From sequence record MT701590.1: a stretch of DNA of 64,000 bases. One strand, 5' to 3'. Within the stretch, counting starts at the first letter, position 1. Each line of letters opens with the position of its first letter. Positions 18,441 through 51,754 of the stretch are shown here, in pieces. The DNA is from Klebsiella phage Miami. The notes under the pieces are model-generated. The model was not told the DNA's origin, did not search any database, and saw nothing but the letters and a program-made list of their open reading frames with translations. The position numbers and the translations under genes are program-made.

Positions 18441-20148
18441 TACCAGCACCACATCGACCACATCAAGTACGAGTGTTGCGGCGACGGGTCCTCAGTTACC
18501 TAACTCGAATGATCTACTCACCCCACTCGATATTTCCAACCTTTACGATCCGGATACGGTAGCCGATTCTGATGCGTCAAAATACATCGTTGGTCGTGAA
18601 GGCCAAACGGTCATAGACGGATTGAACCAACGAGCTTACGTCATTACTCACGTTGGGACTGAAGATGCGAAATACAAATCAACGTTAAAACGGATAGGGT
18701 TTGTTACGGATAGCGACGACAACTCCAGTGACATCATCGGTTTACCGGGACGCTTTGCCGGCAATGGTGTTTTGGGAATCGACTACAGTGTCAGACCTCC
18801 TCGGGCTGTCATCGATGGTCGTGTATGGGCTCCTGATGCGGCCTACGGTTTGCTTTATAAAGGCGTGGTTATCGGTGATAGCGGTCAGGTCATTTCTGTT
18901 CAATACGCAACTAATGGTGATTTGATTTCTAATCAGGTCCCGACTAAATTAGCTGCGGTTAACAACATGACCAACCACAGTATTTTCACCACTACTGCTT
19001 TTTCGGTGACTCAAACGGCTGACGAACTCCCGGACGGAAGTTTGTGCACGCTGGTGTTCTTCGATGCGGCCGGTAACATGATTCCCGAACCTTATGAACT
19101 TGGCGTGATGCACACTGCGTTGCTGAGAGATCATCAGATCGGGATCAAGTATGTTTCGGCTATTGAACTGATATCTCCTTGGTTCACCGATACGACCGAT
19201 CCTACTACGCTGAACATTCCTATCAACGTTGCGATGAGCTCGGTTCAATTCTCTGCGCGCATCCATTATAACGATGGATCAACCAAAGAGCAATTGATTG
19301 ACGGGACCAAATGTGCGATCATCGGGCTCAATGAATACAAACCTACTACGGTAGGTCAGCGTGCTTCGATCGTACTTCGGTATTCGTTCGATGAGGATGA
19401 ACAGGCTTTAATTGCTACACCTAATTATCCAGACATGATCACCCAGGCTTATCAGATCGTTTGTACTCAGGTTAACGGCGCTTACTCTCCAAAACTCTAC
19501 ACTTATCCGGTGTGGAACGGAACAGGGTATTCGCTCAAACATTACCTGTACGATCTTACCCGCGGATATGCAACTGACGTTACTCAGCATGTTACACTCA
19601 ACGACACGTCGCCAGCCTTCCAGCCGGCTAACTATGGCGTTCAGCAAGACATGGTGTTTAACCTGACGCTGTCAGACGTATCTTCGACGTTTAAAGCGTG
19701 GACGCTGGTACAGCATACTTCTATTACGTTGTATAAAGCGAATACCGGGACGGGTCGTCGTTGGGCTATCCAGTACTCTTCTGCGAATAACCCTTACGTC
19801 GCTTATAACGTCGGGTATACCGAAGCCAATGGTGTTCAGTCCATTAACCTGGCTGGCTCCATCCTCACGATTTCTGATTGGTTGAATCGACTCTACTATC
19901 CGGTAGAACCATTGATCGATACCACGAAAGAATCGGCGGCTCTGGTTCCTAACTATATCCGGTTGGTTGACACTAACGGGGTTACTCACGACCTTGAAAT
20001 CAACGATTGGAATAAACCTCAAGCGCTCACTTCTCCTGTTGCAAGTGGTCAAACCCTCTTCCTGCAATGGATTCAGAAATCAGAGAACGGGGCCGAACTC
20101 CAATTGGCGACCACGGGTGTTGTTGTAGACGTCGCTCCGAGCAATTAA
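18433..20148 (+). CDS. hypothetical protein (571 aa), probable structural
   Basis: ORF overlapping the upstream stop (ATAATG). N-terminus is Ser/Thr-rich. Confidence 0.5.
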   Translation: MFDTSTTSTTSSTSVAATGPQLPNSNDLLTPLDISNLYDPDTVADSDASKYIVGREGQTVIDGLNQRAYVITHVGTEDAKYKSTLKRIGFVTDSDDNSSDIIGLPGRFAGNGVLGIDYSVRPPRAVIDGRVWAPDAAYGLLYKGVVIGDSGQVISVQYATNGDLISNQVPTKLAAVNNMTNHSIFTTTAFSVTQTADELPDGSLCTLVFFDAAGNMIPEPYELGVMHTALLRDHQIGIKYVSAIELISPWFTDTTDPTTLNIPINVAMSSVQFSARIHYNDGSTKEQLIDGTKCAIIGLNEYKPTTVGQRASIVLRYSFDEDEQALIATPNYPDMITQAYQIVCTQVNGAYSPKLYTYPVWNGTGYSLKHYLYDLTRGYATDVTQHVTLNDTSPAFQPANYGVQQDMVFNLTLSDVSSTFKAWTLVQHTSITLYKANTGTGRRWAIQYSSANNPYVAYNVGYTEANGVQSINLAGSILTISDWLNRLYYPVEPLIDTTKESAALVPNYIRLVDTNGVTHDLEINDWNKPQALTSPVASGQTLFLQWIQKSENGAELQLATTGVVVDVAPSN

Positions 20149-24628: not shown

Positions 24629-24994
24629 ATGACCGAAGAAGAGTTTGATGATGAAGTCGAACAAACAGCGAATCTTCATAACCTCACAATTCCTTATGCC
24701 GAATATATCGTTATTAAAAAACTAGTTGGCCCTGAGTTAACATTTGGATTACTTCAGCATCTCGAACATCGGAACGTCCTTCACACCAAAGAAATAAAAA
24801 GTTTAAAATTATACATCTTCGATTATTACAACAATCTTAAACCGGGGATGGTTTTCGCTTATAATCAAGAAGAAGCGATCGCCATGATCAAAGAAGCGGG
24901 AATTACGGGTCAACCAGATAAGTTCTATTCTTCGGTTAAAGAGATTGAAATTCCTGTCGATCCTATTTATATTCGTTACGCCGCTGGAGAATAA
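24629..24994 (+). CDS. hypothetical protein (121 aa)
   Basis: ORF with AGGAG RBS. Confidence 0.45.
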   Translation: MTEEEFDDEVEQTANLHNLTIPYAEYIVIKKLVGPELTFGLLQHLEHRNVLHTKEIKSLKLYIFDYYNNLKPGMVFAYNQEEAIAMIKEAGITGQPDKFYSSVKEIEIPVDPIYIRYAAGE

Positions 24995-24997
24995 ATA

Positions 24998-25444
24998 ATG
25001 TCCAATTCACAATATTCCATTTATGGTTTAAATAATATCTCCGGTGGTATTCGACGCGGAGAAACGATGGTGATAGGGGTACATACATCGTCTAAAACTT
25101 CCATGCTGAATCAGGTCATTGACGACATCATTCTGAATTGTGGATCAAATAATGTCATGTCGGATGAAGAGGCTTTAACCCAGATCGATAAGCTGAAGAA
25201 ATTTATTGCTCTTAAGCCTGTTGATTTTGTTAGCGTTACCGCGCTCAATCTTTGCGTTCAACGTAGTGACAGCACCGATGTACTGATCAGTTTTAAGAAA
25301 ATGATTGAGTCAGGCAATAGTGTTCGGGTAGACGTTATTAAGTCAAGACACGAAGTGGGTTCCGATGAGGACGCCCCTGAAATTTTTCCTCCTCACCCAG
25401 GGTGTAAACCGTTGGTCTTAATGGATCCAGAATCCGGAGAATAA
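24998..25444 (+). CDS. small RecA/DnaB-superfamily-like protein with degenerate Walker A
   Basis: GLNNISGGIRRGETMVIGVHTSSKTSML resembles the G..GG.RRGEL..I.G..GKT pattern of DnaB/RadA/KaiC but lacks the P-loop glycines; only 148 aa. Confidence 0.4.
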   Translation: MSNSQYSIYGLNNISGGIRRGETMVIGVHTSSKTSMLNQVIDDIILNCGSNNVMSDEEALTQIDKLKKFIALKPVDFVSVTALNLCVQRSDSTDVLISFKKMIESGNSVRVDVIKSRHEVGSDEDAPEIFPPHPGCKPLVLMDPESGE

Positions 25445-25447
25445 AAA

Positions 25448-26398
25448 ATGGAAAAGAAAAAAGAACCGTCTTTATCTGAATCAGACTCGTCTAAAAATAT
25501 GCTAAGAACCCCGTTTGATCTTGTTGACGATTATCAAGAAAATCAAAAGGGTGTTATCGATACAAACCCCCCAAAACTTATTCCTCGGATTACTGGTGTC
25601 AGATGTTCCCTTTTTAGAAGAGAGGATCTTGTTAAAGCCATGCGGGTCATCTCATCGCCTTTCAGGCCAGCAGAGTCGTCAGAGAACGATGCCGCGCAAC
25701 AGCAACAAAGAATTGAAATTCTGGCTAAAAAGATAGCGGGGACATTTGATTGTTCTAGGGAGCAAGCCGAACGGATTGTAAGAGGAGCGCTAGTCCAAAA
25801 AGGTATTAATGAAGCACTTGACAATATGTTTGATAATCTTAGTGAGTTTCAGGAAATTGGTGAAATAAAAGACGGGCGCCTTACGCTGATTCCATCTAAT
25901 GAAAAGGGCGTGATTAAACTCGCCTTACCTAACGATCAACTCCCTACAGATGTGCTTGGTCAGAAACCAGATTTGGCATGGGATGGAGAACCGGCTTTTA
26001 GAAGAGAAGATTTGTTTAAAGATATTCCTGATGTTGACCTAGAAGAGGCGTATCCGGGTACCCGTAAAACAAATCCTGAACTATACCGGACTTCACCTTA
26101 TCCGACTCCCGAAGAGATGATTACTTCTCAGAACATCGGGATGGGTAAGTTGGTACACGTTACCGACAAATGGTTCTTCTATCGTCATCACCAATTCCAC
26201 AACATTCATCACAAACGTCGTAGAGCACACTTCGATGAAATCAGTCTTATGCTGATGCGTTTTAACTGGGCTCGGCACAAAGAAGAGCTGCATAAGAAGA
26301 AATATCATATCTTCGATAAGACCCCTCGGGCTAAGGCTGAACGTTTAGCACTTAAACGTTCGAGAGAAAAGATTAAATCGACTTTGATGATTAGCTGA
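25448..26398 (+). CDS. hypothetical protein (316 aa)
   Basis: ORF. Confidence 0.5.
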   Translation: MEKKKEPSLSESDSSKNMLRTPFDLVDDYQENQKGVIDTNPPKLIPRITGVRCSLFRREDLVKAMRVISSPFRPAESSENDAAQQQQRIEILAKKIAGTFDCSREQAERIVRGALVQKGINEALDNMFDNLSEFQEIGEIKDGRLTLIPSNEKGVIKLALPNDQLPTDVLGQKPDLAWDGEPAFRREDLFKDIPDVDLEEAYPGTRKTNPELYRTSPYPTPEEMITSQNIGMGKLVHVTDKWFFYRHHQFHNIHHKRRRAHFDEISLMLMRFNWARHKEELHKKKYHIFDKTPRAKAERLALKRSREKIKSTLMIS

Positions 26399-34280: not shown

Positions 34281-35243
34281 ATGAGTACATTACGTGTTTA
34301 CGCGTGCGGCGGTACTGGTATTAATATTGCGTCTAAATGGATTGCCACCGGTGCGAATACGCTTATTCGTAAAGCCCAGTTCATTGGACTGGATAGCAGT
34401 GAAAACAACAAACCGTATAACGACGCCTTTAAGGTCGAACGTCCTGAAGGAACTCGTGGCGGTGGCAAAGAACGTAAGCTGATCGGTAAAATCGCTGCTG
34501 GGTTTATTGACAGTATTTTGACCAAACATAAACCGGGCGATTTCAACCTGATCATCATGAACGCGGCTGGCGCTACCGGGAGTACATTCGGCCCGACTCT
34601 GATCAACCGTCTTCTCTCTCAGGGCGTTCCGGTCATTGCGCTGGTCGTAGGCGACCTGACTTCTGAACTGGAAAACTACAACACGGTTAAAACGTTTGAA
34701 AGCTTGGACAACCAGCGCATCAATCTGAACGTACCGGTTATCATCGACTACGTGGACAACGCCAAATATCCCAGCCGCGGGTTGGCTGACAAATATGCCA
34801 TCGGCCGTCTTGATATCCTGAGCCTGTTCTTAACCGACGAACATGAAGAAAGCGATTTCCAAGACATCCGGAACCTGTTCTATTACAACCAGGTTACCAA
34901 GGCGGCGCCTACTCTTGCTCGTATCGACTTCTTGACCGATACTCAGTTAGACAACGTTACTCCGGGGCTGGTTGCTGAATTTGGTTTGTATCGTAAAGCG
35001 GACGATATCGGCAGCCATATTAAAAATCTGGCATACCGTTCGACCGGCGTTATTCAGGAAGGCAGCACTAACTTCCCAGCTGGAATAGAACATCTCCACA
35101 TGGTCTTTGATCATGATGCGACGATCAAAGATATCCTGGTTCTGGTTCAGGATCTTAAAGATATCGAGATCCAAAATAACGAACGTTTTAAATCTGCCCA
35201 GCAGGTTGGAAACGGCGGCGATGATTCTGGAATGTCCTACTAA
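34281..35243 (+). CDS. phuZ: tubulin-like protein PhuZ (phage spindle tubulin)
   Basis: N-terminal VYACGGTGINIASK (GGTG nucleotide-binding loop) and tubulin signature-like MNAAGATGSTFGP (the GGGTGSG position). 320 aa, matching PhuZ (~315 aa). Confidence 0.6.
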   Translation: MSTLRVYACGGTGINIASKWIATGANTLIRKAQFIGLDSSENNKPYNDAFKVERPEGTRGGGKERKLIGKIAAGFIDSILTKHKPGDFNLIIMNAAGATGSTFGPTLINRLLSQGVPVIALVVGDLTSELENYNTVKTFESLDNQRINLNVPVIIDYVDNAKYPSRGLADKYAIGRLDILSLFLTDEHEESDFQDIRNLFYYNQVTKAAPTLARIDFLTDTQLDNVTPGLVAEFGLYRKADDIGSHIKNLAYRSTGVIQEGSTNFPAGIEHLHMVFDHDATIKDILVLVQDLKDIEIQNNERFKSAQQVGNGGDDSGMSY

Positions 35244-40136: not shown

Positions 40137-40141
40137 ACCCT

Positions 40142-40170
40142 ACTCCTACTCCCGATAAGGGAGTAGGAGT
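40142..40170. terminator. bidirectional hairpin between convergent genes
   Basis: actcctactccc gataa gggagtaggagt; this stem recurs at other terminators in the window. Confidence 0.5.
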
Positions 40171-40182
40171 AGTTATTATGAA

Positions 40183-41178
40183 TTAAAGTGGGGAACAGCC
40201 CTTAATAGTTTTAGCAATAGAAGAGATCGTATCCATAAACTCGTTCGTGTTACTTATAATGCTTGAACAAAGTTTAAGAATATTCTTAAGTCCATCGATA
40301 AAGGGTTTGTCCAATTGTTTATCCAGATCATTCCCTTTGTTCATTTCTTCTTCTAATTTATGAATTTTCTTTTCAAGATCAGATTTAGACGATTTGATAT
40401 TTTCTAAGTTATTGGAAATTGCGTTAATGAACGATGAGGAATGTGACAAGAATGTGGAAGCCGAGTTGAGGTCTTTAATCCCGGCCACTTCCTTTTTAGC
40501 CTGAACCATTCCGTTTAAAACGGGTTGGGAGCCCTGAACCAACGCAGATATTTTTTTGCTGATGGTTTCCCCGTACCCTTCGGGAGTAACGGCTGGAGAT
40601 TCCACTTTCTTAATTTTTTCAAGCTGATCTAAAAAGCCGGCGTGAAGAGATTCAAGTTTTTTGCTTTGCTTGTCAAAAGAGCTAGACTGTTCCGCATTAA
40701 ATTCAAAAACTTTCTTAGCGACTTCTTTTACGCTGGCGGCCGGGACGACGTTAATGCCATTACGTTTAAGGATGTTCCTTAATTCTTCCTTTCGCTGGGC
40801 TGCCTGCTGACCTGTTTTAGATGAGATCTTTTCGACCATTGCGTTGGCTTGAGCCAGAGTCATCTCCGGAGGAGACTGGACTTCTTTAATGGTCTCTTGG
40901 GCTTCTTTAACCTCTGTTTTAACCGCTTCAACTTTCTTCTTAGAAGATCCCCCGAATACCCAATCGAAGATCTTTTTAAACATCCCTTTAATGTACTCCC
41001 ACGCTTTCTTTATTCCGTCTGAGACGGCATCTGCAAACCCTTCGTTACCAGAAACAAACGTATTGCTGGGTTCGTTAGCCCAAAGTACACCGCCTAAGTA
41101 ACGCGAAGCGTACGTTTCATTCCCGCTGATGCGGTCATACAACCCGTTGAAAACGAGTTCAATGTGATCGTTGTTCAT
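40183..41178 (-). CDS. coiled-coil protein (331 aa)
   Basis: Lys/Glu-rich heptad-like central region (KEVQSPPEMTLAQANAMVEKISSK...LEKKIHKLEEEMNKGNDLDKQLDK). Confidence 0.5.
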   Translation of the reverse strand: MNNDHIELVFNGLYDRISGNETYASRYLGGVLWANEPSNTFVSGNEGFADAVSDGIKKAWEYIKGMFKKIFDWVFGGSSKKKVEAVKTEVKEAQETIKEVQSPPEMTLAQANAMVEKISSKTGQQAAQRKEELRNILKRNGINVVPAASVKEVAKKVFEFNAEQSSSFDKQSKKLESLHAGFLDQLEKIKKVESPAVTPEGYGETISKKISALVQGSQPVLNGMVQAKKEVAGIKDLNSASTFLSHSSSFINAISNNLENIKSSKSDLEKKIHKLEEEMNKGNDLDKQLDKPFIDGLKNILKLCSSIISNTNEFMDTISSIAKTIKGCSPL

Positions 41179-41187
41179 TTAGTTTTC

Positions 41188-42300
41188 CTATTTAGATAAT
41201 TTATTTTGTTTTAACATGGCGGTGACTTGTTCTAGATATTGCACTTGCAACGGGCCTGGAACGAAATGCTTAATCATTCCTTTGATATCCTGCCTAGCCC
41301 AAACATCGATATGACCATTGACCGTCCCCATTGCGTTGAAGCTTTTATTATTGAGTGCCAAACTAAGCGTCAATAACTTCATTATTGGGAATTGCCAAAT
41401 AGCGTTTGTTTGACTGTATCGATTGTATCTCTTTGCATCTACAATGAGAGGGTTGACATCCATCGTCATAAAGTCGCCTATTCTCTGTATGACGTGTTCA
41501 GGAGAATAGCTCGGCGTTAGCGTTAAAGTCTCGACCAAGAAGGTTAAGAATCCTTTGAGTAATTCACCCACTGGATTGATATTGAACTCCCCCTTGACTA
41601 CCGTTAATTGGTCGTCGATGTTCTCACCGTTAACCACGACGTTATACAACGAATTGAATACGCTCAATTGATGCTGCAAACATCTTGCGTTAATTAGAGG
41701 GGTGCCGGCCAGATAACGATGAGGACCCAATCCTGTTTCTGATCCTTCGGCTAATCTCTCGTTAAGGTAACGCCAATACCCTATACCCAAAGCCGTGATA
41801 TCCACCCCTATTACTGCGAACCCACCATAATTCATCGGATCGTTTTTGAGCGACGTGGTGTTGGTATAACGGATGTCCGTCTCGGTGCTAATCAGCGGGA
41901 TGATACTGCAAATGTCCCTTTCGTCTAAATCGAAATAATCGTCGAGGTTATCTTTAGCCGGATAAGATACCAACATTTCAGTTAACCCATTTCCGTACAT
42001 CACGTTTTGTTTTACGACACCTTTATTGTATATAGACGTGATTCCGATAGTCGACGCCCAACTATCTACCTGCATCTCGATCATTGCTTTAAGGTAGGCC
42101 GGATCCCATTCAGGTTGAATGTTCATTAATGAAAGTAACTGAACCAAAGGATGTTGGTTCTGTAAAACGTAGGTGGTATTGTCGCTCCGTGCGATCCACT
42201 GAGCACGATTAAAATCCAAGATACGTATTACATTACTGAGCCTACCATATTTATAGACGGCAGGACGATGATCGGTTGTTATTAATTTTAAAGGTTTCAT
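41188..42300 (-). CDS. hypothetical protein (370 aa)
   Basis: ORF transcribed divergently from the 42560 gene. Confidence 0.5.
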   Translation of the reverse strand: MKPLKLITTDHRPAVYKYGRLSNVIRILDFNRAQWIARSDNTTYVLQNQHPLVQLLSLMNIQPEWDPAYLKAMIEMQVDSWASTIGITSIYNKGVVKQNVMYGNGLTEMLVSYPAKDNLDDYFDLDERDICSIIPLISTETDIRYTNTTSLKNDPMNYGGFAVIGVDITALGIGYWRYLNERLAEGSETGLGPHRYLAGTPLINARCLQHQLSVFNSLYNVVVNGENIDDQLTVVKGEFNINPVGELLKGFLTFLVETLTLTPSYSPEHVIQRIGDFMTMDVNPLIVDAKRYNRYSQTNAIWQFPIMKLLTLSLALNNKSFNAMGTVNGHIDVWARQDIKGMIKHFVPGPLQVQYLEQVTAMLKQNKLSK

Positions 42301-42559: not shown

Positions 42560-44572
42560 ATGTCCGACAATCAAAATGGCAACAACTGGGAACAAACCGT
42601 CCTGAACACCGCTGCTGGTAAAGGAGAGCCGATCGTCTCTGCTTCTGCCGAGAATTTCGGTTCTCAGCTGCTCGGTCTGCTCGGCCAGGCTTCTCTTCTG
42701 GGTTCTTCCAAGAACGTGCCGGAAGTAGAAGAAACCGCGGCCCTGATCAAGAAACGCGTAACCGATCTGAAAAACGGTACGCCGGGCGAAACCCAGAAGA
42801 AGATCCTGCCGGAAGTGAACATCATCACCAAACCGATCATCTCTGCACTGCCGGGCATCGTGCTCTCCCTGCACATGAACAACAACCCTGCGGTATACGT
42901 CATGCCGGTGCTGTTCTCTAACCGTCATCTGACCAATACCCTGGAAGAGATCCAGATCGACAACGGCGTTAACCAACAGCGCAAAATGTCCATGCCGTTT
43001 ACCCCTGATTCCTACGCTCGTGCTGATCTGTTCGAACAGATCAAAATGCACTACAAAGCGATGCTCCAGGATAAAGGTGTGAGCGAATGCGTGATCATCA
43101 ACGTGATGGTTATCGACCTGGAACAGATCGTTGGTGACGATGTCCTGAATCAGGGCAAATCGCCGCTGCTGCGTGATGAAATCATGCGTAGCTGGGAACA
43201 GGGTCTGATGGTACAGATCGCGAAAATCGCAGCCAACCAGCCGAAAGCTTCTCTGCCTTCTCCGTTCTCTGCGACCGGTGGCAAAGCCTATGGTCAGCAC
43301 GGTAATGCGATTGCTCGCGTTGAACCGATCCGCGGTCAGTATGTTAACGAAGGCCTGCTGTCTCCGGCGAACCTGACCATCCGCATGCAAACTGCTAACC
43401 ATAACGGTTATCAGGGTAACGCGGAACAGTCCCGTGAAATCGTCAACACCTACGCGACCGTTAGCCTGATGGGTTCTCCGATCCAGCAGTTCAACCCGCA
43501 GCTGACCGGTAACATTCCGCAGCCGTACCTGCAGACCCCTAACGGTCGTCCTCAGGGCTACACCCCGCTGCAGCCGGTGGTTATTATGAACCACGCTAAA
43601 GCTGGCGAAGTGCTGGGCGATGCGACTGGCCTGTCGACCTACTTCATGGGTCTGTTCTCTCTGATGGCGACCAACAGCAACTACCTGTTTGCTGAAGCTC
43701 TGCGTTCTAAGAACGTAGGTTCTCGTGGCTCCCTGACTGATATGGAACACCGCATCCGTCAGATGGAAAATGGATTACCTCCGCGCACTAAGGGTACTGA
43801 GATGACCGACGCTAAACTGTCGGATATCGATTTCACCACTAACTGGATTCGCGCCAATATTGGACCTAAAGCAGTCTTTGCTGCTGACCTGATCCAGTTT
43901 GGCCCGGATGCGGCAATCTCCAACTTCCTGTTCAACCTCACTCCCGGTGCGAAAGACTACATCAAATGCGTGAAAACCGTTATTGCTATCGTCGACTCCA
44001 TCTCCGGTGATGCGAAAGCCATGTCTGCGGTTATCGCAGAAAACCAGGCCAACAACAATGCCAATGGCGGATGGATTCCGGGCAAACCGGTGCTGCACGT
44101 TTCTAACGCGCTGATCCCAGTCGGTACTTCTGTACTGGATAACAAACGCATTGCGCTCGGCGAAGTGGACGAGATGTTCCTGTCCAAGCACTATAAAGAT
44201 CAGGTCGCCCCGATGAACCAGTACCTGGAAAACATGTACGGGTCTAACCCGAACGTTCCGGAAAAACTGCGTCGCTACAATCTGTTGATCCAGCTGTCCA
44301 CCATCTTCTCTGAAGGTGTAAACCTGTTCGGCTTCGCTCGTCGTTGCTACTGGGATCCGCTGTTCATGGATGCGTTCACTAAAGCGATGAACACCATCGG
44401 TTCTCTGCAGGTTACTGGCTCTATGGGTCAGTTCGCTGCTAACGTTCAGGTCTTCGCTCCTGGCCAGCAGTATATCTCTCAGGCAACTGCTGGTAACTCC
44501 GGTGGCGTCGTTCTGGGTAACGGTATGATGCTGGGTGCAGGTGGCGGTCTGGTGTTTGGCCCGTCCTACTAA
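42560..44572 (+). CDS. highly expressed 670-aa protein; candidate chimallin (phage nucleus shell protein)
   Basis: Strongest codon bias in the window (ctg, ccg, ggt, cgt, aac). In phiKZ the nuclear shell protein gp54 sits directly upstream of the non-virion RNAP beta'-N gene gp55, as here. Size is in the chimallin range. A major capsid protein cannot be excluded. Confidence 0.45.
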   Translation: MSDNQNGNNWEQTVLNTAAGKGEPIVSASAENFGSQLLGLLGQASLLGSSKNVPEVEETAALIKKRVTDLKNGTPGETQKKILPEVNIITKPIISALPGIVLSLHMNNNPAVYVMPVLFSNRHLTNTLEEIQIDNGVNQQRKMSMPFTPDSYARADLFEQIKMHYKAMLQDKGVSECVIINVMVIDLEQIVGDDVLNQGKSPLLRDEIMRSWEQGLMVQIAKIAANQPKASLPSPFSATGGKAYGQHGNAIARVEPIRGQYVNEGLLSPANLTIRMQTANHNGYQGNAEQSREIVNTYATVSLMGSPIQQFNPQLTGNIPQPYLQTPNGRPQGYTPLQPVVIMNHAKAGEVLGDATGLSTYFMGLFSLMATNSNYLFAEALRSKNVGSRGSLTDMEHRIRQMENGLPPRTKGTEMTDAKLSDIDFTTNWIRANIGPKAVFAADLIQFGPDAAISNFLFNLTPGAKDYIKCVKTVIAIVDSISGDAKAMSAVIAENQANNNANGGWIPGKPVLHVSNALIPVGTSVLDNKRIALGEVDEMFLSKHYKDQVAPMNQYLENMYGSNPNVPEKLRRYNLLIQLSTIFSEGVNLFGFARRCYWDPLFMDAFTKAMNTIGSLQVTGSMGQFAANVQVFAPGQQYISQATAGNSGGVVLGNGMMLGAGGGLVFGPSY

Positions 44573-44643: not shown

Positions 44644-46074
44644 GTGAACGGAGACGTTATGGATCAGTACGGTGATCGTATTATTGATGCATTAACAGCG
44701 CCTGAATTTTCATCATTGCAACCAGAGGCTCAGTTTAAAACTTATGCCGAACAATACGGTGGTGACCTTTCTGACGACAAACGTTTTTATGAACCCCTTT
44801 ATCCCGACTTCACTGACTATAACCGTTTGCATGATACTGCTAAGGTCGATCCGGTTTACCTGAACGATTTCGATTTTTGTTTGGAAGAAGACCGAGAACG
44901 AATCGCATCTTTGATTCGTATGGACTTCAACACCGACACATTCGAAACCGTCGCGAGATGTAGCTGTGGGCATCTGAAGGGCAACTATTTGTTGGGTCAG
45001 AAAAGATCATGTCCCATCTGTCAATCCCTTGTAGAGAAAGTCGTAGAGACTTCCTTAGATACTAAGGTATGGGTCAGGGTTCCAGAAGGTGTAGTTGGAT
45101 TTATCAGTCCGGCTTATTACAAAACCTTCTTATCGAAGATCGCGACCAATTCTCCAAAGATTGAGATCGTGACTTGGCTCATCGATCCGTCTTATCGTCG
45201 GGGTAGTCGGGCTCAGCATACTGAGTCTGGTCGTCGGATGTTGGCTGAACTCGATAAACTCGGAATAGTCCCCGGGCTTAACAGCTTTATATTGAACGCG
45301 GACAGATTCATGGAACACTTCCTTGTTGGTGAAGGAAGAGGTGCTGTGAGCATGAAGCCGGCTGATGGTAAAAAGCATTTGGATAAGTATTACGAATATC
45401 GTCATCTTATCTTCCCGCGCTATTTGTCCGTACCCAATAAACTCGCCACCATCATCGAGCAAGATGGTAAAGATAAGTACGTTTCTTCAACCCAATTGAA
45501 AACCTCGGCAATCTACCAATCTATTGCAGATACGAGAGATTCTACTGAGTTTTATAAATGTACGATTAAGGATCTTAAGGAGAACGCTGATATCGTCGGG
45601 AAGGCGATAGTTCGATTAGGTAAGCAGAACTCTGATAACTATAAGAGTCAGCTGTTTGCTAAATCGAGCCTGATACGTAAACACGTAATCGCGGGATCGT
45701 TATCTTTATCAGGTCGTGGTGTTATCACATCAACGACTGGGTTGCATGATGCCGGTGTTGCTAAGATACCTTGGATCATGGCAGTGGCTATGCTGAAGAA
45801 ACACATCCTGGGATATCTTTACCGTTTAGGGTACAGCCCCCTGAAAGCCGAAAGTGTAATCAGTACAGCAGCACACCAAGTCGTCCCGGTAATCGATCAA
45901 TTCTTTACCAAGCACGAAAAGCAAAAAGACATTGTCTGCATTTTAGGAAGAAACCCATCAATTCAGTACCTGTCAGCAAAAGCCTTCTTCATGTCGATCA
46001 ACCGAGATTTAGAAGACGAGTCGATAAACTTACCAATACTCTCAGTTAAAACCTTTAATGCTGACTTCGACGGT
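44644..46074 (+). CDS. RNA polymerase beta' N-terminal subunit, exon 1 (ends inside the catalytic NADFDG|D motif)
   Basis: Zn-finger CSCGHLKGNYLLGQKRSCPICQSL. Exon ends ...FNADFDG at 46074. The track ORF continues KRVAVHKFL* into the intron. The codon count to NADFDG (~471-476) matches the E. coli beta' position (458-464). Possible alternative ATG start at 44659. Confidence 0.55.
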
Positions 46075-47489
46075 AAACGTGTTGCCGTCCATAAATTTCT
46101 CTAACTGCTGGAACACCCTAAAGCTCGTTTAGCTACAACGTAATCCGCAAGGATAACCGTGAATGCGGTCGAAAGACAGAAAAAATAAACGAGATGATCT
46201 ATGCTTAATATCTTGATTAAGGATTTAATTGAGTGCTAAGGATTTCTAATGGGCGATCAGCATCGAAGCTTCCTTATGGGAAGAACGTTCAACGACTAAA
46301 TACATCGAATTCGTGATGTTAACGGGAAAGCAGCTTACAGGATGTGACTGCAAGATATAGTCTCAACCGGTGCGAAAGTGTCGGATAGCAAATGCTCTAG
46401 CCAGGCATTTGCTCTTGGATTAACGACCCAAGCAGCCTCTTTATTATGATCCTTTAAAATGAGAAAATTAATACCCGGAACTAAAAACTTCTATGCGGGT
46501 GACGACAATCAGATTTATGATTCTGAAGGAGTCCCTAGAAAACAATATGTGAATGGTGACGGTTACAAAACAGCTTCCGTTCTATTGGAAGACGGAAGAT
46601 GGGTAACCTTTGGAGTTCAGCGTTTAGTCGCCATGGCCTTCAAAAAGACCGACGTACCATTTGCTTTACTAACAGTCAACCACATCGATAAAGTTAAATG
46701 GAATAACACTCCGCCTAATTTGGAATGGGTGTCGAATAAGCATAACGTTATTCACGCTATTCTCCTTAATAAGAAATCTTTGAGGCCTTTAATTTCTTGC
46801 GAGAAAGATAACGAAAGTTTCTTTTTAGCGGATATCTATGATGCTGTTATCCATTTTGATTCAGACGTTGAATCAGTTTGGGGAGCTATCAGAGACGGTA
46901 AAGAAATTGATGGGTGGAAAATTTCCTACATTAAGGCCTCTGATAAAAGAAACCAGAGGATTATAGTGAAGGCCCCTAAGGAAAGATCTGGCCATGAAAG
47001 GCCGTTGACTATGATGGATGTGGAAACAGGAAATATTAAAGAATTTTCTTCCATTAAAGAAGCCGCGAGCCATTTCTCTGTCTTAATAACCCATATCCGG
47101 ATTAGAATTTCCACTCCAGGATATCCTAAGGTTTTTAGGGGGAGATATGTTTTCGTAGATAAGGGAGAGAGTTTTGATTTTCTAAATGAGGAGGTATTGG
47201 GAAGATTAAAAAGAACAGCGCCGAAACAGGTGTTAGCTTATAATTTGGAAACGTCGACTTTTCGGACGTATGATTCGGCTCGATCGTTTATTCAAAATAA
47301 TAAGCTCAGTAAAAAAGCAGTCTCGGTGAGACTGAAGAAAGAAAAATTGGAATCGGTTTCCGGTTGGTTATTTAAATACCAAACCGCTAATCCAGATTCT
47401 GATAAGAAAGCATTATTAGAGATGGCTAGATCTCTCTTAGTGTAGGAACATATGAGGCGATAAAACCGGTTAATCCGGACAATGCGAAG
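46075..47489 (+). ncRNA. group I intron (IA2-like, T4 td-like core) carrying an HNH homing endonuclease ORF
   Basis: P1: exon end gacggU pairs with internal guide gccgtc at 46084-89, with a U.G wobble. P7 strands gacta (46294-98) and tagtc (46358-62) sit in R/S-like elements caacgactaaata and caagatatagtct (identical 11-mer to td AGATATAGTCT). P9 hairpins gcaaatgc..gcatttgc and cttgg..ccaag. Candidate omega-G at 47489. A 4-bp P10 is possible (exon-2 gaca with intron tgtt). Confidence 0.55.
46459..47445 (+). CDS. HNH homing endonuclease (intron-encoded)
   Basis: TVNHIDKVKWNNTPPNLEWVSNKHN is an HNH/HNH_3 motif; N-terminal GDDNQIYDSEG..VNGDGYKTASV is an NUMOD-like region. Gene is AT-rich relative to its flanks. 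Confidence 0.7.
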   Translation: MRKLIPGTKNFYAGDDNQIYDSEGVPRKQYVNGDGYKTASVLLEDGRWVTFGVQRLVAMAFKKTDVPFALLTVNHIDKVKWNNTPPNLEWVSNKHNVIHAILLNKKSLRPLISCEKDNESFFLADIYDAVIHFDSDVESVWGAIRDGKEIDGWKISYIKASDKRNQRIIVKAPKERSGHERPLTMMDVETGNIKEFSSIKEAASHFSVLITHIRIRISTPGYPKVFRGRYVFVDKGESFDFLNEEVLGRLKRTAPKQVLAYNLETSTFRTYDSARSFIQNNKLSKKAVSVRLKKEKLESVSGWLFKYQTANPDSDKKALLEMARSLLV

Positions 47490-48348: not shown

Positions 48349-48711
48349 ATGAATAGCGAACAAACCAAACCCATGCATAGTGTTTTTATGCAAATCATCA
48401 GTTCCGAAGAAATCGGTAATTTGAAGAATGCCGTTCGGAATACCGAATTCCTTTTAGCCGAGTTAGGCGAATCGGAAGACGGCAAACCACTGGATCCATC
48501 CCATCTGATCTTTATTGTAACTGACATGTCTTTTGACGAACACGGAAACTTGATGGGAAGAGTAACTCCCACCGGCCCATACAAGGACAAGGGACGGGAA
48601 TGGATTTCAACTAAAAAATATAAAACACCTATTTTTAAGTTTATTCCGAGAGTGGCTACGAATAACCGCAATTGGACCTTCATCAATAAACTCGACGTGG
48701 TGGTCAAATAA
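48349..48711 (+). CDS. hypothetical protein (120 aa)
   Basis: ATG at 48349; the hairpin tgggggag gaaa ctccccca at 48308-27 lies just upstream. Confidence 0.4.
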   Translation: MNSEQTKPMHSVFMQIISSEEIGNLKNAVRNTEFLLAELGESEDGKPLDPSHLIFIVTDMSFDEHGNLMGRVTPTGPYKDKGREWISTKKYKTPIFKFIPRVATNNRNWTFINKLDVVVK

Positions 48712-49073
48712 TGGAAACCACTCGGGATTATACAGCGAAGATCAAATGGCCTTTTGTTGTTGTGTTTAATCTCAATGATGGTCCGGAGGAAACTTCCTCC
48801 GTGATCATTAAAACCAGGATCCCTTCTGGCGGATATAAGGAATTCCACATCTACTTAAAAGATTTAATCGACCGTGCTCGTTTAAACGTTCGAGGGTCAA
48901 TCTCGGATAAAGATTTCTTAACCGATATTAGCGAGTATTTTATTTCGTCTGTTGCTTCTAAATCAGCGGATAAGAAAACCTTGGCTGAGGCCTGTCGGTC
49001 GGTTTTAGAAGGAAACGTGTTTAATCGTAAGATATTCGTTCCCTTTTACGGACTCAGGCCGAGAGAAGAATAA
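48711..49073 (+). CDS. hypothetical protein (120 aa)
   Basis: ATGG overlap with the upstream stop. Confidence 0.45.
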   Translation: METTRDYTAKIKWPFVVVFNLNDGPEETSSVIIKTRIPSGGYKEFHIYLKDLIDRARLNVRGSISDKDFLTDISEYFISSVASKSADKKTLAEACRSVLEGNVFNRKIFVPFYGLRPREE

Positions 49074-49124
49074 TTGACATGCAGATAATTATACATCGAT
49101 ATTATTTAGTCGGAGGAATTAAAT

Positions 49125-50261
49125 ATGTTTATTTCTAAACGAGGTAAGCTCCGACTACATAAAGATGATTTAGAAACAATCGAAAGAACTTTTGGTTGTC
49201 GGAGGTTTGTATGGAATCAGCTTTTAGGATTTCATAAAAATCAGTATGAAAAATGGAAAGAAGATTGTACTTTAGAGAAACCTAAAGTTTCTATTTCGGC
49301 TTTTAGAGAGGAATTTAAACGTCTTAAATTAACACACCCTTGGTTAAATGAAGTAAGCTCTATCGTTTTATATGAGACTATTACCGATCTTTATAATGCT
49401 TTTCAGGGTTTCTTTAAGAGCGGTAAAGGTTATCCTAAATTTAAATCTAAACGAGGGATGCAATCTTTTCGAATAGCTTCTCGATACAACATGCGTGTTT
49501 CAGGTAATCGAGTTAGGATACCTAAGTCGAATTACTACGCTAAGTTCTCTAAAAATACGGTTTTAAACGATCCTTCGTCATATACGGTCACTCGTGACAA
49601 CGTAGGAGATTATTTCATCTCTTTTGTAGACCAGATCGACGAGATCGAACAAGAGCCTGAAAGTAAAGGTAAGCACGTTGGTATTGATTTAGGGATTAAA
49701 TCTTTAGCGATTATCAACTCTAATAAAGGGGAGTCTTGGGAGTTAGAAAATCCCAAAACCTACGTCAAGTACCAAAAAAGGAGAACGACGCTACAACGTC
49801 GTTTAATGAAAAAGAAGAAAGGGAGTAACAATCGTAACAAAGCCAAAATTAAATTAGCAAAGTTAGAACGTAAAGTATCTAATATCCGTAAAGATCTTTT
49901 ACACAAATTTACCACTAAGATTATTCGTGAAAACCAAACCATAGTTTTAGAGGATTTAAACGTAAAAGGAATGGTTAAAAATCATAAACTGGCTAAACAT
50001 ATTCAAGATTGTTCTTTTGGTACGATTAGAACAATGTTAGAATATAAAGCTAAGCGTTATACCAAACCAAAAGTGATTTGTCTTGTTCATCGTTTTTATC
50101 CCAGTACTCAACTCTGTTCTCATTGTGGCATGAAAAGTGAAGTGAAAATCAAACTTCATATAAGAGAATGGACCTGTGGTCACTGTGGGGTTAAACACGA
50201 TAGAGATATCAATGCAGCTACGAATATCCTTAACGAAGGATGTCGTTTAACAGCCTCCTAG
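49125..50261 (+). CDS. tnpB: TnpB (IS200/IS605-family OrfB) RNA-guided nuclease-like protein
   Basis: N-terminal FGCRRFVWNQLL (OrfB helix-turn-helix). RuvC-I HVGIDLGIK, RuvC-II IVLEDLNVKGM, Zn-ribbon CSHCG..CGHCG, RuvC-III HDRDINAATNI — all catalytic D/E/D present. The gene is markedly AT-rich compared with neighbours. Confidence 0.75.
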   Translation: MFISKRGKLRLHKDDLETIERTFGCRRFVWNQLLGFHKNQYEKWKEDCTLEKPKVSISAFREEFKRLKLTHPWLNEVSSIVLYETITDLYNAFQGFFKSGKGYPKFKSKRGMQSFRIASRYNMRVSGNRVRIPKSNYYAKFSKNTVLNDPSSYTVTRDNVGDYFISFVDQIDEIEQEPESKGKHVGIDLGIKSLAIINSNKGESWELENPKTYVKYQKRRTTLQRRLMKKKKGSNNRNKAKIKLAKLERKVSNIRKDLLHKFTTKIIRENQTIVLEDLNVKGMVKNHKLAKHIQDCSFGTIRTMLEYKAKRYTKPKVICLVHRFYPSTQLCSHCGMKSEVKIKLHIREWTCGHCGVKHDRDINAATNILNEGCRLTAS

Positions 50262-50398
50262 GTTAAGGGTATTTAATTACCCCTACCCTTGGTCTGAGGG
50301 GACGTTAAGCCTGTGGAGCCGGGTTGCAGTTAGGACCCCCTATGAAACAGGAAATTGAAAAATATGAGACAGAATATTTTATTTATAAGGAATCTATT
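50262..50398 (+). other. TnpB 3' flank: candidate right end / omega-RNA scaffold region
   Basis: Hairpins gggta tttaat taccc and ccc..ggg-rich segments lie right after the tnpB stop, where IS605-family omega-RNAs end. Boundaries are not defined. Confidence 0.25.
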
Positions 50399-50524
50399 AT
50401 GTCAATCATCGCCTCTATCGCCATCGTTGTTATTATCACCGCAGTAGTCTACGTGCTCACCAAAGATGCCGTGGAAGAAATCTTCCCGGTGCGTAAAGAA
50501 ATGGCTGTTCGTAACAAACGTTAA
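50399..50524 (+). CDS. small membrane protein (41 aa)
   Basis: AAGGAA RBS; product MSIIASIAIVVIITAVVYVLTKD... is hydrophobic. Confidence 0.35.
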   Translation: MSIIASIAIVVIITAVVYVLTKDAVEEIFPVRKEMAVRNKR

Positions 50525-50534
50525 TTTATTGTTA

Positions 50535-50581
50535 CTCCCCTCCGAAAGGAGGGGAGCCTAACCGCGATTATTTTTTTTTTT
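50535..50581 (+). terminator. rho-independent terminator
   Basis: ctcccctcc gaaa ggaggggag ... ttttttttttt. Confidence 0.5.
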
Positions 50582-50582
50582 C

Positions 50583-50990
50583 ATGAGGTTCATGATGACC
50601 GGATTTTGCGTTGCAACAATGTCGACGTTGGGCTTTATAGCCGATGACGTTAAACTCGCTATGGACAGACACCTCACTTATTGGTTTGCATCCAGACGCG
50701 ATCAAAATAAGTTAATAGGTGAGGTCGATTCCTTTGAATATCTTCTGATGACCTACCAAGGTAATCGGAGCGCTTTGGTCAGTAATGTCGAAAGCTCACT
50801 CAGGACTTACTTCCAGCAGATTTTCAGTACTGTAGAAGTTCAAGTGTCAGATTCCGATATGCCGGGTGAAACAGAAAACTTTACACTGGTCATGGCGCTT
50901 AGGGTGACACACGAAGGCGTCCCTTATGACCTTCAAAATGCCGTTATCGTATCCGGCGCTTCTTATACTCTTCTTCCGAGAGGTAACTAA
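50583..50990 (+). CDS. hypothetical protein (135 aa)
   Basis: ORF. Confidence 0.45.
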   Translation: MRFMMTGFCVATMSTLGFIADDVKLAMDRHLTYWFASRRDQNKLIGEVDSFEYLLMTYQGNRSALVSNVESSLRTYFQQIFSTVEVQVSDSDMPGETENFTLVMALRVTHEGVPYDLQNAVIVSGASYTLLPRGN

Positions 50991-50992
50991 CA

Positions 50993-51754
50993 ATGTCCGA
51001 CAAAATGCCATCCGAACACTACGCGCTTAAATTCTTAGAGGGCGGCACCCCTAAGGTTATCAATGGTAAACGCTACCTGGAAATGAACGGCGAACTGGTG
51101 AACGTCGCCACTTCTATTTCAGAGGCGACCTTCGTCAGAGATTGGCTTCTCGGATTCTCGTTAGGTTATGTCGGCGAGAAGTCTTATTTTGATTTTGCAC
51201 GGTGGATGGAAATTAGTAACGAAGGACGCTCGGCTGTTATCGTCCATGATAACGAAGACGAAAATAAACCTATCTTTGTTGTTCCTCCTCTGACCGATAC
51301 GAAAATGACAGCTCAGGAAATGGAAGTTCTTCAGGTAGCCGCTGGCGTGATGAGCAATGCTTATGGCGCGCAATTCGGCGGATCGACCAGCAGAAGTACC
51401 GAAATACTTTTACAGGGTCTGTCCATTATCCAAAAAGGTCTGCAGTCTGGCGAATACACCATAACTGATCTCGTCCCACCCTTCATCTATGAAAAATACT
51501 CGATCAATCCTCGAGTATTTAAAAAGATGATGCATTGTAAAAATACCTTTGGGTTGGATACCAATGATGAGAGCTGGAAAGTTCTAGAAGCTTGTTTCAG
51601 AGTCATTGACGAAGGTAAAGTGTTAAAACAACAACAGTACGACTTCTTAATGGCGATCACGCAAAATACAGCAATCGTCCCCGATCAATGTAAACCTGAC
51701 AGTAAAAATAAACAGGAAGATCAATTTACAGAGATCAACCCATTTGAGTGTTAA
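50993..51754 (+). CDS. hypothetical protein (253 aa)
   Basis: ORF. Confidence 0.5.
   Translation: MSDKMPSEHYALKFLEGGTPKVINGKRYLEMNGELVNVATSISEATFVRDWLLGFSLGYVGEKSYFDFARWMEISNEGRSAVIVHDNEDENKPIFVVPPLTDTKMTAQEMEVLQVAAGVMSNAYGAQFGGSTSRSTEILLQGLSIIQKGLQSGEYTITDLVPPFIYEKYSINPRVFKKMMHCKNTFGLDTNDESWKVLEACFRVIDEGKVLKQQQYDFLMAITQNTAIVPDQCKPDSKNKQEDQFTEINPFEC

Follow-up and report, generated by a model that had tools for sequence, protein, structure and literature searches.

The genome of Klebsiella phage Miami (sequence record MT701590.1), from which a stretch of 64,000 nucleotides, here called the window, was analysed, carries at positions 49106-50371 a transposase-less element made up of a tnpB gene and a predicted omega-RNA, which, judged from comparison with related phages, probably acts as a selfish RNA-guided homing element of nucleus-forming jumbo phages. 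The evidence comprises the anatomy of the element, the conservation of its protein, covariation in its 3' RNA, an exact right end, guide-position sequences matching empty alleles, presence/absence polymorphism among sister phages, and mosaic flanks; from these observations we infer transcription, cleavage, the identity of the transposon-adjacent motif (TAM), the homing process, and access of the nuclease to the phage nucleus.

Boundaries and composition of the element

The flanks of the element are 95-98% identical to five phages of ≈250 kb, i.e. Klebsiella phages phiKp_32, YC1 and KPN8, Raoultella phage VB_ZK_P1, and 'Stenotrophomonas' phage BUCTxx100, and at the window site the element is missing in all five of these GenBank relatives. 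Its boundaries were drawn from these element-free sister phages and from the homology among 17 copies, with the following features assigned on the window:

49106-50371, plus strand: whole inserted element, 1266 bp (filled versus empty alleles; end of homology among copies)
49106-49124, plus strand: left end of 19 nucleotides, TTAGTCGGAGGAATTAAAT, containing GGAGG (49112-49116) as ribosome-binding site and homologous to the ≈19 nucleotides directly before the ATG in other copies
49125-50261, plus strand: tnpB, 378 amino acids, with intact RuvC triad and CxxC..CxxC zinc ribbon (Pfam, structure alignment, motifs)
50245-50371, plus strand: predicted omega-RNA scaffold, overlapping the last 17 nucleotides of tnpB (alignment A4, covariance model R1)
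50368-50371, plus strand: terminal GACA of the right end, with which the element stops exactly (copy homology and empty-site comparison)
50372-50391, plus strand: predicted guide template and target GAATATTTTATTTATAAGGA, native phage 5' untranslated region and ribosome-binding site of the gene at 50399-50524
50372-50850, plus strand: proximal right flank, candidate co-conversion tract (flank identity contrasts)
49098-49105, plus strand: native phage sequence GATATTAT, promoter-like and outside the inserted DNA (present in the KPN8 and phiKp_32 empty alleles)

The original prediction had placed the element at 49074-50398; an element is indeed present there, and alignment to the five relatives that lack the element here, the procedure it had proposed for defining the ends, corrects the coordinates to 49106-50371. 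When filled and empty alleles are compared, ...CATCGATATTAT, ending at 49105, borders the element on the left, and GAATATTTTATTTATAAGG, starting at 50372, borders it on the right. The homology among diverged copies ends independently at the same right boundary, ...GACA, with the terminus reading GACA in most copies, GACG in one, and AAAACA in Pseudomonas phage EL. The element is composed of a left end of 19 nucleotides that holds only the ribosome-binding site, tnpB, and 110 non-coding nucleotides; tnpB is the single open reading frame (ORF), and no second ORF or tnpA was detected inside the 1266 bp. The G+C content amounts to 0.357 versus a window mean of 0.441, at the 1.6th percentile of 1266-nucleotide windows. 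Further copies or orphan right ends were not found within the window by tblastn, blastn, or the covariance model. The left junction (after TTAT, 49102-49105) and the right junction (50372) are separated by 18 nucleotides in the empty allele, a spacing that falls inside the cleavage zone of 13-23 bp reported for a TnpB with a TTAT TAM and that may be a coincidence or a trace of the first insertion.

The TnpB protein

The gene product matches OrfB_IS605 (1.8e-29), Cas12f1-like_TNB (5.2e-20) and HTH_OrfB_IS605 (5.8e-07) in Pfam, all over the curated cut-offs, and residues 15-372 align end to end with ISDra2 TnpB (8BF8/8EXA/8H1J; E 1.8e-55). The motifs by which the protein had been recognized as TnpB are present at the expected positions: FGCRRFVWN at residue 23, GIDLG at 186 (D188), LEDLN at 275 (E276), and HDRDINAA at 358 (D361), together with the zinc-ribbon motifs CSHC at 331 and CGHC at 351 (cysteines C331, C334, C351 and C354). 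The three catalytic residues were said to be retained; in a comparison of 16 intact copies, neither the D188/E276/D361 triad nor any zinc-ribbon cysteine varies. By its residues, the protein is a predicted OMEGA nuclease with catalytic triad and not a dead derivative, and the suggestion that it is domesticated finds no support in these residues or in a guide that matches the empty allele of sister phages. By its sequence anatomy, the element is of the IS1341 type, with tnpB only, a right-end RNA, and no transposase, in line with the earlier classification as tnpA-less, its single ORF being flanked by native phage genes.

Covariation evidence for a structured 3' RNA

The region 3' of tnpB is conserved from the Klebsiella-type clade to phage EL, with visible compensatory substitutions. 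The fold of the single sequence is no better than that of shuffled sequences (z -0.73), and covariation alone was therefore taken as evidence for structure. Five helices were proposed, a covariance model was built, and 21 matches were re-aligned with it:

50245-50251 with 50304-50310: helix 1
50267-50271 with 50278-50282: helix 2
50286-50290 with 50296-50300: helix 3
50311-50314 with 50347-50350: helix 4
50321-50323 with 50336-50338: helix 5

Standard pairs occupy 94.1% of the cells of this alignment, versus 81.2% after shuffling and 31-63% with slid partners; compensatory changes on both sides occur in 18 of the 24 pairs, and none of 500 shuffles reached any of the five measures. The model matches the window only once (50229-50371, 163 bits), and it also matches four loci in IMG/VR outside the training set, each directly after a tnpB of ≈40% identity. 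An Rfam scan of 48500-51000 returned no known RNA family, the only match being one to caiA at chance level in the leader. The 3' RNA thus has the appearance of a predicted TnpB omega-RNA scaffold that ends at the element boundary (...GACA). A structured stretch of 137 nucleotides had been claimed downstream of the stop codon; the covariation bears out the structure, and the length has to be reduced to the 110 nucleotides of the non-coding part.

Predicted guide, target, and adjacent motif

In every copy the right end is exact, with copy-specific phage DNA beyond it. At the window site, the predicted guide GAATATTTTATTTATAAGGA matches the empty allele of KPN8 in 20 of 20 positions, where it is preceded by ...ACAAAT; the view that the guide is taken from phage DNA is in accord with this finding. 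Across the copies, the 20 nucleotides at the guide position match the TnpB-free KPN8 empty allele completely in six (the window and five others) and with 1-3 mismatches in four more. A search for the guide as a target elsewhere, which had been recommended, thus led to the empty alleles of the sister phages: the 20 nucleotides do not occur a second time inside the window, they have no match in IMG/VR, and their 10 matches in 185,579 species genomes all fall in unrelated AT-rich genomes, with none among the Enterobacteriaceae. The original idea that the guide serves as a spacer against the host or competitors was consequently rejected.

With the right end taken as ...GACA, the target is preceded by A-Y at 8 of the 11 empty sites, and the first target base is G; three of these sites read TTAT(G), and TCAT(G), CTAT(G), AAAT(G), ATAC(G) and CTAC(G) are represented by one site apiece. 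The remaining three sites fit A-Y(-G) after a shift by one nucleotide. With the background frequencies of KPN8, the probability is ≈1e-5 for A-Y and 2e-10 for A-Y-G. The element's own end (...CA) never fits the A-Y-G motif, so that the carrier would be protected. A TTAT TAM, with offset breaks 13-23 bp from it, has been documented for the TnpB of ISDge10 (PMC11589281). The pentanucleotide TTGAC, proposed earlier as the TAM, finds no support in this role, being part of the native flank, shared by the empty alleles and 27 nucleotides away from the left junction; the hexamer TTGACA at 49074 forms a sigma-70-like -35 box, and such matches are no commoner here than in shuffled sequence.

Distribution, age, and selection

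Protein searches delivered a tight clade ranging from 96% down to ≈48% identity, separated by a gap from generic TnpBs, which reach at most 44%. Clade members with readable context reside in the present phage clade, where their flanks are 88-99% identical to KPN8, in EL-type phages, or on metagenomic contigs to which no backbone was assigned. In phage EL (ORF037, L109, 41045-42187) and on an EL-like metagenomic contig of 214 kb (L108), the TnpB is 52% identical; both have the same right-end RNA architecture and an identical right end (…AAAACA) with different downstream flanks.

All 17 copies come from the Klebsiella-type clade, and 11 sites of insertion were mapped for them, leaving out two other tnpB places of VB_ZK_P1; the region 127-133 kb of that phage, suspected to contain a further copy, was rejected as an empty site. 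The copies are co-oriented with most of their neighbouring genes. When four insertion sites of GenBank phages were compared, each was filled in only one of the five, and KPN8 and YC1 are entirely devoid of tnpB; neither the KPN8 genome nor the other loci inspected carry a tnpA annotation.

Among bacteria, no relative above 44% identity bears the name of an isolate in the protein searches, and the named bacterial proteins among the matches listed are 41-43% identical. Copies of the element were absent from 5,426 E. coli genomes, the best plasmid match reached 41.5% at the amino acid level, IMG/VR held nothing closer than about 40% identity, and a metagenome scan added one further clade member. 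An identical element in many unrelated bacteria, named earlier as the mark of a passive hitchhiker, was accordingly not encountered.

Copies at different sites differ by 0.65-2 synonymous substitutions per site (dS), with ratios of non-synonymous to synonymous change (dN/dS) of 0.12-0.27. As the flanks are 92-99% identical, these dS values make the TnpB lineages far older than the backbones that carry them, and by their dN/dS values the lineages are kept functional by purifying selection. The G+C content of tnpB lies 2-11 points under that of its flanks in every host phage, including EL (0.44 versus 0.51), so that low G+C is a property of the family and follows the composition of the host phage. 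The composition below the surroundings noted in the original prediction is thus real, and the recent acquisition read from it does not follow.

Mosaic flanks and related copies

A second filled allele of the window site is present in L089, which shares the element at 97.2% and encodes a TnpB of 96% identity. The first 479 nucleotides of the right flank are 97.9% identical to this allele versus 95.8% and 93.0% to the empty alleles, and the left flank shows the reverse, with 94.5% to L089 versus 98.8% and 99.7% to the empty alleles (Fisher P 1e-7 for the contrast between left and right). Identity to KPN8 is 98-99.7% up to the left junction, 91-93% for ≈1.2 kb on the guide side (to ≈51500), and then recovers. 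A right flank of ≈0.5 kb appears to travel with the element.

Several other copies show peculiarities of their own. In L096, a tnpB copy sits inside the homologue of gene KPN8_116 (intervals 1291-1435 and 2744-2888); on its left side the last 145 nucleotides of the gene are recoded (≈70% nucleotide identity, protein conserved) such that the gene remains intact, and the original gene end, 98% identical to KPN8, follows the right end as guide template. In L121 (1501-2770, SKEH01000004.1), at the P0002 site, there is a frameshifted tnpB that is a mosaic of several lineages, between which recombination has taken place, with tandem right ends (AAGACA followed by GAAACAGG...GGGACA followed by GTTAAAG), one of them inserted after CTAT within the right end of another lineage. 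The P0005 copy in L094 (1454-1500, 2750 onward) is accompanied by a loss of 214 nucleotides in the middle of the homologue of KPN8_137, a metallo-phosphatase, whose gene is split. The mosaic in L121 and the recoded, putatively uncleavable target in L096 fit the life cycle of a homing element.

Left ends, junctions, and a promoter-like motif

The last four bases of the native sequence GATATTAT are TTAT and resemble a TAM, with the left junction at their end. A related motif, CTAYATTAT, has eight occurrences in the KPN8 genome, all of them on the coding strand and none on the opposite one (1.9 expected). It comes after a T-rich run, with few exceptions closely precedes a gene, and is often followed by CATGGTGTAAAC:

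KPN8 (L099-L104), positions 19842, 55148, 93318, 94938, 150019, 165468, 201941 and 228504: CTAYATTAT

Within the window the motif is not enriched. Several left ends carry CTAYATTAT, several TnpB insertions lie at or near it, and at three sites (the window, phiKp32_2, and P0012) the left junction coincides with the end of a native copy. CTAYATTAT is a candidate phage promoter, putatively an early promoter in view of work on phiKZ, and the left junctions are candidate recombination joints within the motif.

The copies compared have no common left-end hairpin to which TnpA could bind. Since the left ends vary, tnpA is lacking, and no left hairpin is conserved, the present reading does not account for how the element reaches new sites. 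A 'fossil flank' as the source of the non-homologous left parts was discarded, as BLAST against KPN8 and the window gave no source locus, the only shared feature being the promoter-like motif. A retrotransposition-like or guide-primed origin of the exact right end was also considered and dropped, because there is no reverse transcriptase and the guides of different copies are unrelated. Inspection by eye of the 13-23 bp upstream of the duplications of 7-12 nucleotides, where the footprint of a staggered cut would place the TAM, brought out no consistent motif. A guide CATGGTGTATAAACAAAT hitting similar leaders after other CTACATTAT motifs, if true, would explain selection for the loss of 18 nucleotides seen at the window site.

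Proposed mechanism and alternative explanations

In the proposed mechanism, the native promoter-like sequence bordering the left end would drive a joint transcript of tnpB and the structured 3' RNA. The RNA scaffold would end with ...GACA at 50371, and read-through into the next ≈16-20 nucleotides of phage DNA would supply the guide. Upon co-infection with an element-free sister phage, the complex would recognize the same 20 nucleotides next to an A-pyrimidine(-G) motif, i.e. a TTAT-like TAM, and cut; the break would be repaired from the element-carrying genome, whereby the element and some of the adjacent right flank would be copied. The carrier itself would be immune, its own target being preceded by ...GACA in place of the motif. 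The locus shows both the presence/absence polymorphism and the predicted nuclease target in the vacant allele that characterize the homing class. Homing by TnpB has been established in bacteria (PMC10055086); spread into co-infecting phages exists as a theoretical 'non-restorative homing' in a 2026 review (PMC13565253). Within the literature covered, which left most subscription journals aside, no such family was described for jumbo, nucleus-forming, or chimallivirus phages.

A wider scenario can be offered tentatively, as a possibility of not quite even weight: the TnpB lineage may have resided for long in nucleus-forming jumbo phages, from EL to the Klebsiella/Raoultella clade, spreading transposase-free by cutting sister genomes inside the phage nucleus or on their way into it, with left ends that borrow promoter-like motifs, and with at least one copy that owns a recoded, uncleavable target end and has the displaced original as its guide template.

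A number of observations weigh against homing. The insertion at the window site is not clean, as the empty alleles hold 18 extra nucleotides (CATGGTGTATAAACAAAT) without counterpart in the window, and before the target they read AAAT(G) rather than the commonest TTAT(G), so that cleavage by the window copy may be inefficient or absent. The inserted DNA before the ATG varies from 4 to 151 nucleotides, with homology between copies limited to the last ≈19-45; the junctions show deletions of 18 and 214 nucleotides and duplications of 2, 2, 7, 8, 9, 12, ≈32 and 123 nucleotides, and only two copies, VB_ZK_P1 and phiKp32_1, are clean insertions, both after TTATG. Such irregular junctions are predicted by neither homing nor canonical IS200/IS605 transposition, and an exact right end with a TAM-like motif beside it would be the expected product of a Y1 transposase. 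For the same-site pair formed by the window copy and P0001, dN/dS amounts to 0.51, on few substitutions. The flank mosaic rests on tens of substitutions; the divergent right flank gets no lower than the 5th-10th percentile of bins, and mosaicism is a general property of phage genomes. The alignment in which covariation was counted was fitted to the proposed structure. Finally, the phage genome resides inside a protein shell that excludes many nucleases.

Unlikely, yet the best placed among the alternatives, is that the element is kept as a weapon between phages, where cutting of the empty allele cripples co-infecting relatives and gene conversion is a by-product. The guides match alleles of sister phages, the nuclease appears intact by its residues and under purifying selection, the clade is restricted to chimalliviruses, and the same window has an HNH endonuclease associated with an intron in a gene resembling an RNA polymerase subunit, an arrangement that mediates competition in PhiPA3 (PMC11620839). 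Against this stand the targets, which are mostly intergenic leaders and not essential genes, and the absence of tnpB from two of the five sister phages together with one frameshifted copy, which suggest that the element is dispensable. The mosaic flanks suggest that conversion happens; weapon and homing are not mutually exclusive.

It is quite improbable that the window copy is stranded, i.e. that with the loss of the 18 nucleotides after its right end the guide came to lie at a site without usable TAM, and that the copy persists by linkage and ordinary recombination. The nucleotides missing relative to all empty alleles, AAAT(G) in place of TTAT(G) before the present target, and the dN/dS relative to P0001 would be accounted for in this way. 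On the other hand, the ORF and its catalytic residues are intact, the same deleted architecture is found in two backbones with a common right flank, and AAAT keeps the A-Y(-G) feature common to 8 of the 11 sites.

Very improbable is a passive IS1341-type hitchhiker, placed by a Y1 TnpA of the host or a helper acting in trans and without relevant activity in the phage: the exact right end, the A-Y(-G) before the targets, and the clean insertions of VB_ZK_P1 and phiKp32_1 after TTATG are as expected for TnpA-type insertion 3' of a TAM, but close relatives in bacterial isolates, plasmids, and E. coli are lacking (41-43% for the nearest named bacterial proteins listed), the left ends are unconserved and without a common TnpA-binding hairpin, purifying selection is strong over anciently diverged lineages in one phage group, the G+C content tracks the host phage, and tnpA is not annotated in the relatives inspected.

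The host phage and its genomic setting

The host is a nucleus-forming (chimallivirus-type) jumbo phage, as follows from the PhuZ and nuclear shell genes in the window:

34281-35243: PhuZ tubulin (phrog_4733, 1.9e-74)
42560-44572: nuclear shell protein, chimallin (phrog_4795, 2.9e-97)
50399-50524: small gene to the right of the element, 41 amino acids, whose leader and ribosome-binding site overlap the guide position

The window also encodes a divergent family-B DNA polymerase and a beta-type subunit of phage RNA polymerase. The ORFs that adjoin the element are native phage genes, present in the empty alleles as well, and have no Pfam match to transposases. A terminator-like hairpin (CTCCCCTCCGAAAGGAGGGGAG, 50535-50556) follows the 41-residue gene; in KPN8 and phiKp_32 the hairpin reads as its exact reverse complement (loop CCTTTCGG), so that this palindromic element has been flipped.

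At 46065-46384 there is a match to the group I intron family RF00028 (42.9 bits, E 4e-9; the gathering score is 50, so the match falls short of it), and after it, at 46459-47445, comes an ORF for an HNH/NUMOD1 endonuclease. KPN8 lacks the block 46074-47460, which appears to split the beta-type RNA polymerase gene (44644-46104) and resembles the intron-encoded HNH endonuclease gp210 in the RNA polymerase gene of the chimallivirus PhiPA3. Two more segments, 24658-26157 and 40137-41193, are without counterpart in KPN8, and the latter carries an ORF of 331 amino acids on the minus strand, to which no function is assigned (phrog_21850).

Relation to known systems and significance

In the layout of its protein (helix-turn-helix/WED-REC, RuvC D-E-D, zinc ribbon), and in having tnpB end in a structured RNA whose predicted guide corresponds to the DNA just past the right end, the phage element resembles ISDra2 TnpB from the IS200/IS605 element of Deinococcus radiodurans. 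It differs in lacking TnpA, in the A-Y(-G)/TTAT-like motif beside its targets versus TTGAT of ISDra2, in its residence in a lytic nucleus-forming phage, and in its variable left end with duplications and deletions at the junctions. From IS200/IS605 transposons in general it is set apart by the missing Y1 (HUH) TnpA, the absence of a conserved left-end hairpin, and the mostly unclean junctions. With IS1341-type elements it shares the single tnpB ORF, the right-end RNA, and the lack of a transposase gene; in contrast to them, the phage family is confined to one phage group with each lineage tied to its own site, it shows presence/absence polymorphism among near-identical genomes, and its left ends contain captured promoter-like and coding sequence of the phage. 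The element belongs to the TnpB/IS1341 kind, and its probable lifestyle and its junction architecture differ and are new. The TTAT TAM of ISDge10 TnpB fits the TTAT, TCAT and CTAT found at empty sites here; that protein, unlike the phage element, is bacterial and used as an editing tool, and the comparison made here concerns the motif.

The free-standing homing endonucleases of T4-like phages (Seg, Mob) and gp210 of PhiPA3 are likewise nucleases whose genes are intergenic and polymorphic between sister phages, with the target in the endonuclease-less allele beside the insertion point, co-conversion of the flank, degenerating copies, and action between co-infecting phages (PMC2988022, PMC11620839, PMC13565253). 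The phage element, in contrast, would recognize its target by an RNA guide copied from the flank and not by protein, and self and non-self would be set by the presence of the element and not by polymorphism of the target, with a recoded target in addition in L096. TldR proteins, some of them in prophages, share the TnpB family, the omega-RNA-like guide and the association with phages (bioRxiv 10.1101/2023.11.30.569447); they have lost the catalytic RuvC residues and have fixed guides against host promoters, whereas in the phage family the D188/E276/D361 triad does not vary and it is phage alleles that the guides match.

TnpB is the ancestor of Cas12 and keeps bacterial transposons in place by RNA-guided homing, and TnpB-driven spread between genomes on its own has so far been argued in theory only. 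The phage clade provides a natural test case, with many diverged TnpB lineages, no transposase, and guides that match empty sites, and with isolates that differ only by the presence or absence of copies (phiKp_32, VB_ZK_P1 and BUCTxx100 versus KPN8 and YC1). The DNA of nucleus-forming phages is shielded from Cas and restriction nucleases, and such phages are hard to edit. If the homing mechanism is true, it would represent natural 'non-restorative' TnpB homing between viruses, and an RNA-protein nuclease would be admitted through the chimallin shell. An active copy would demonstrate that DNA behind the shell is within reach of an RNA-guided nuclease, and would bear on the competition between phages and on the engineering of nucleus-forming phages, for which the family represents a set of compact (378 amino acids) putative nucleases with a short AT-rich candidate TAM.

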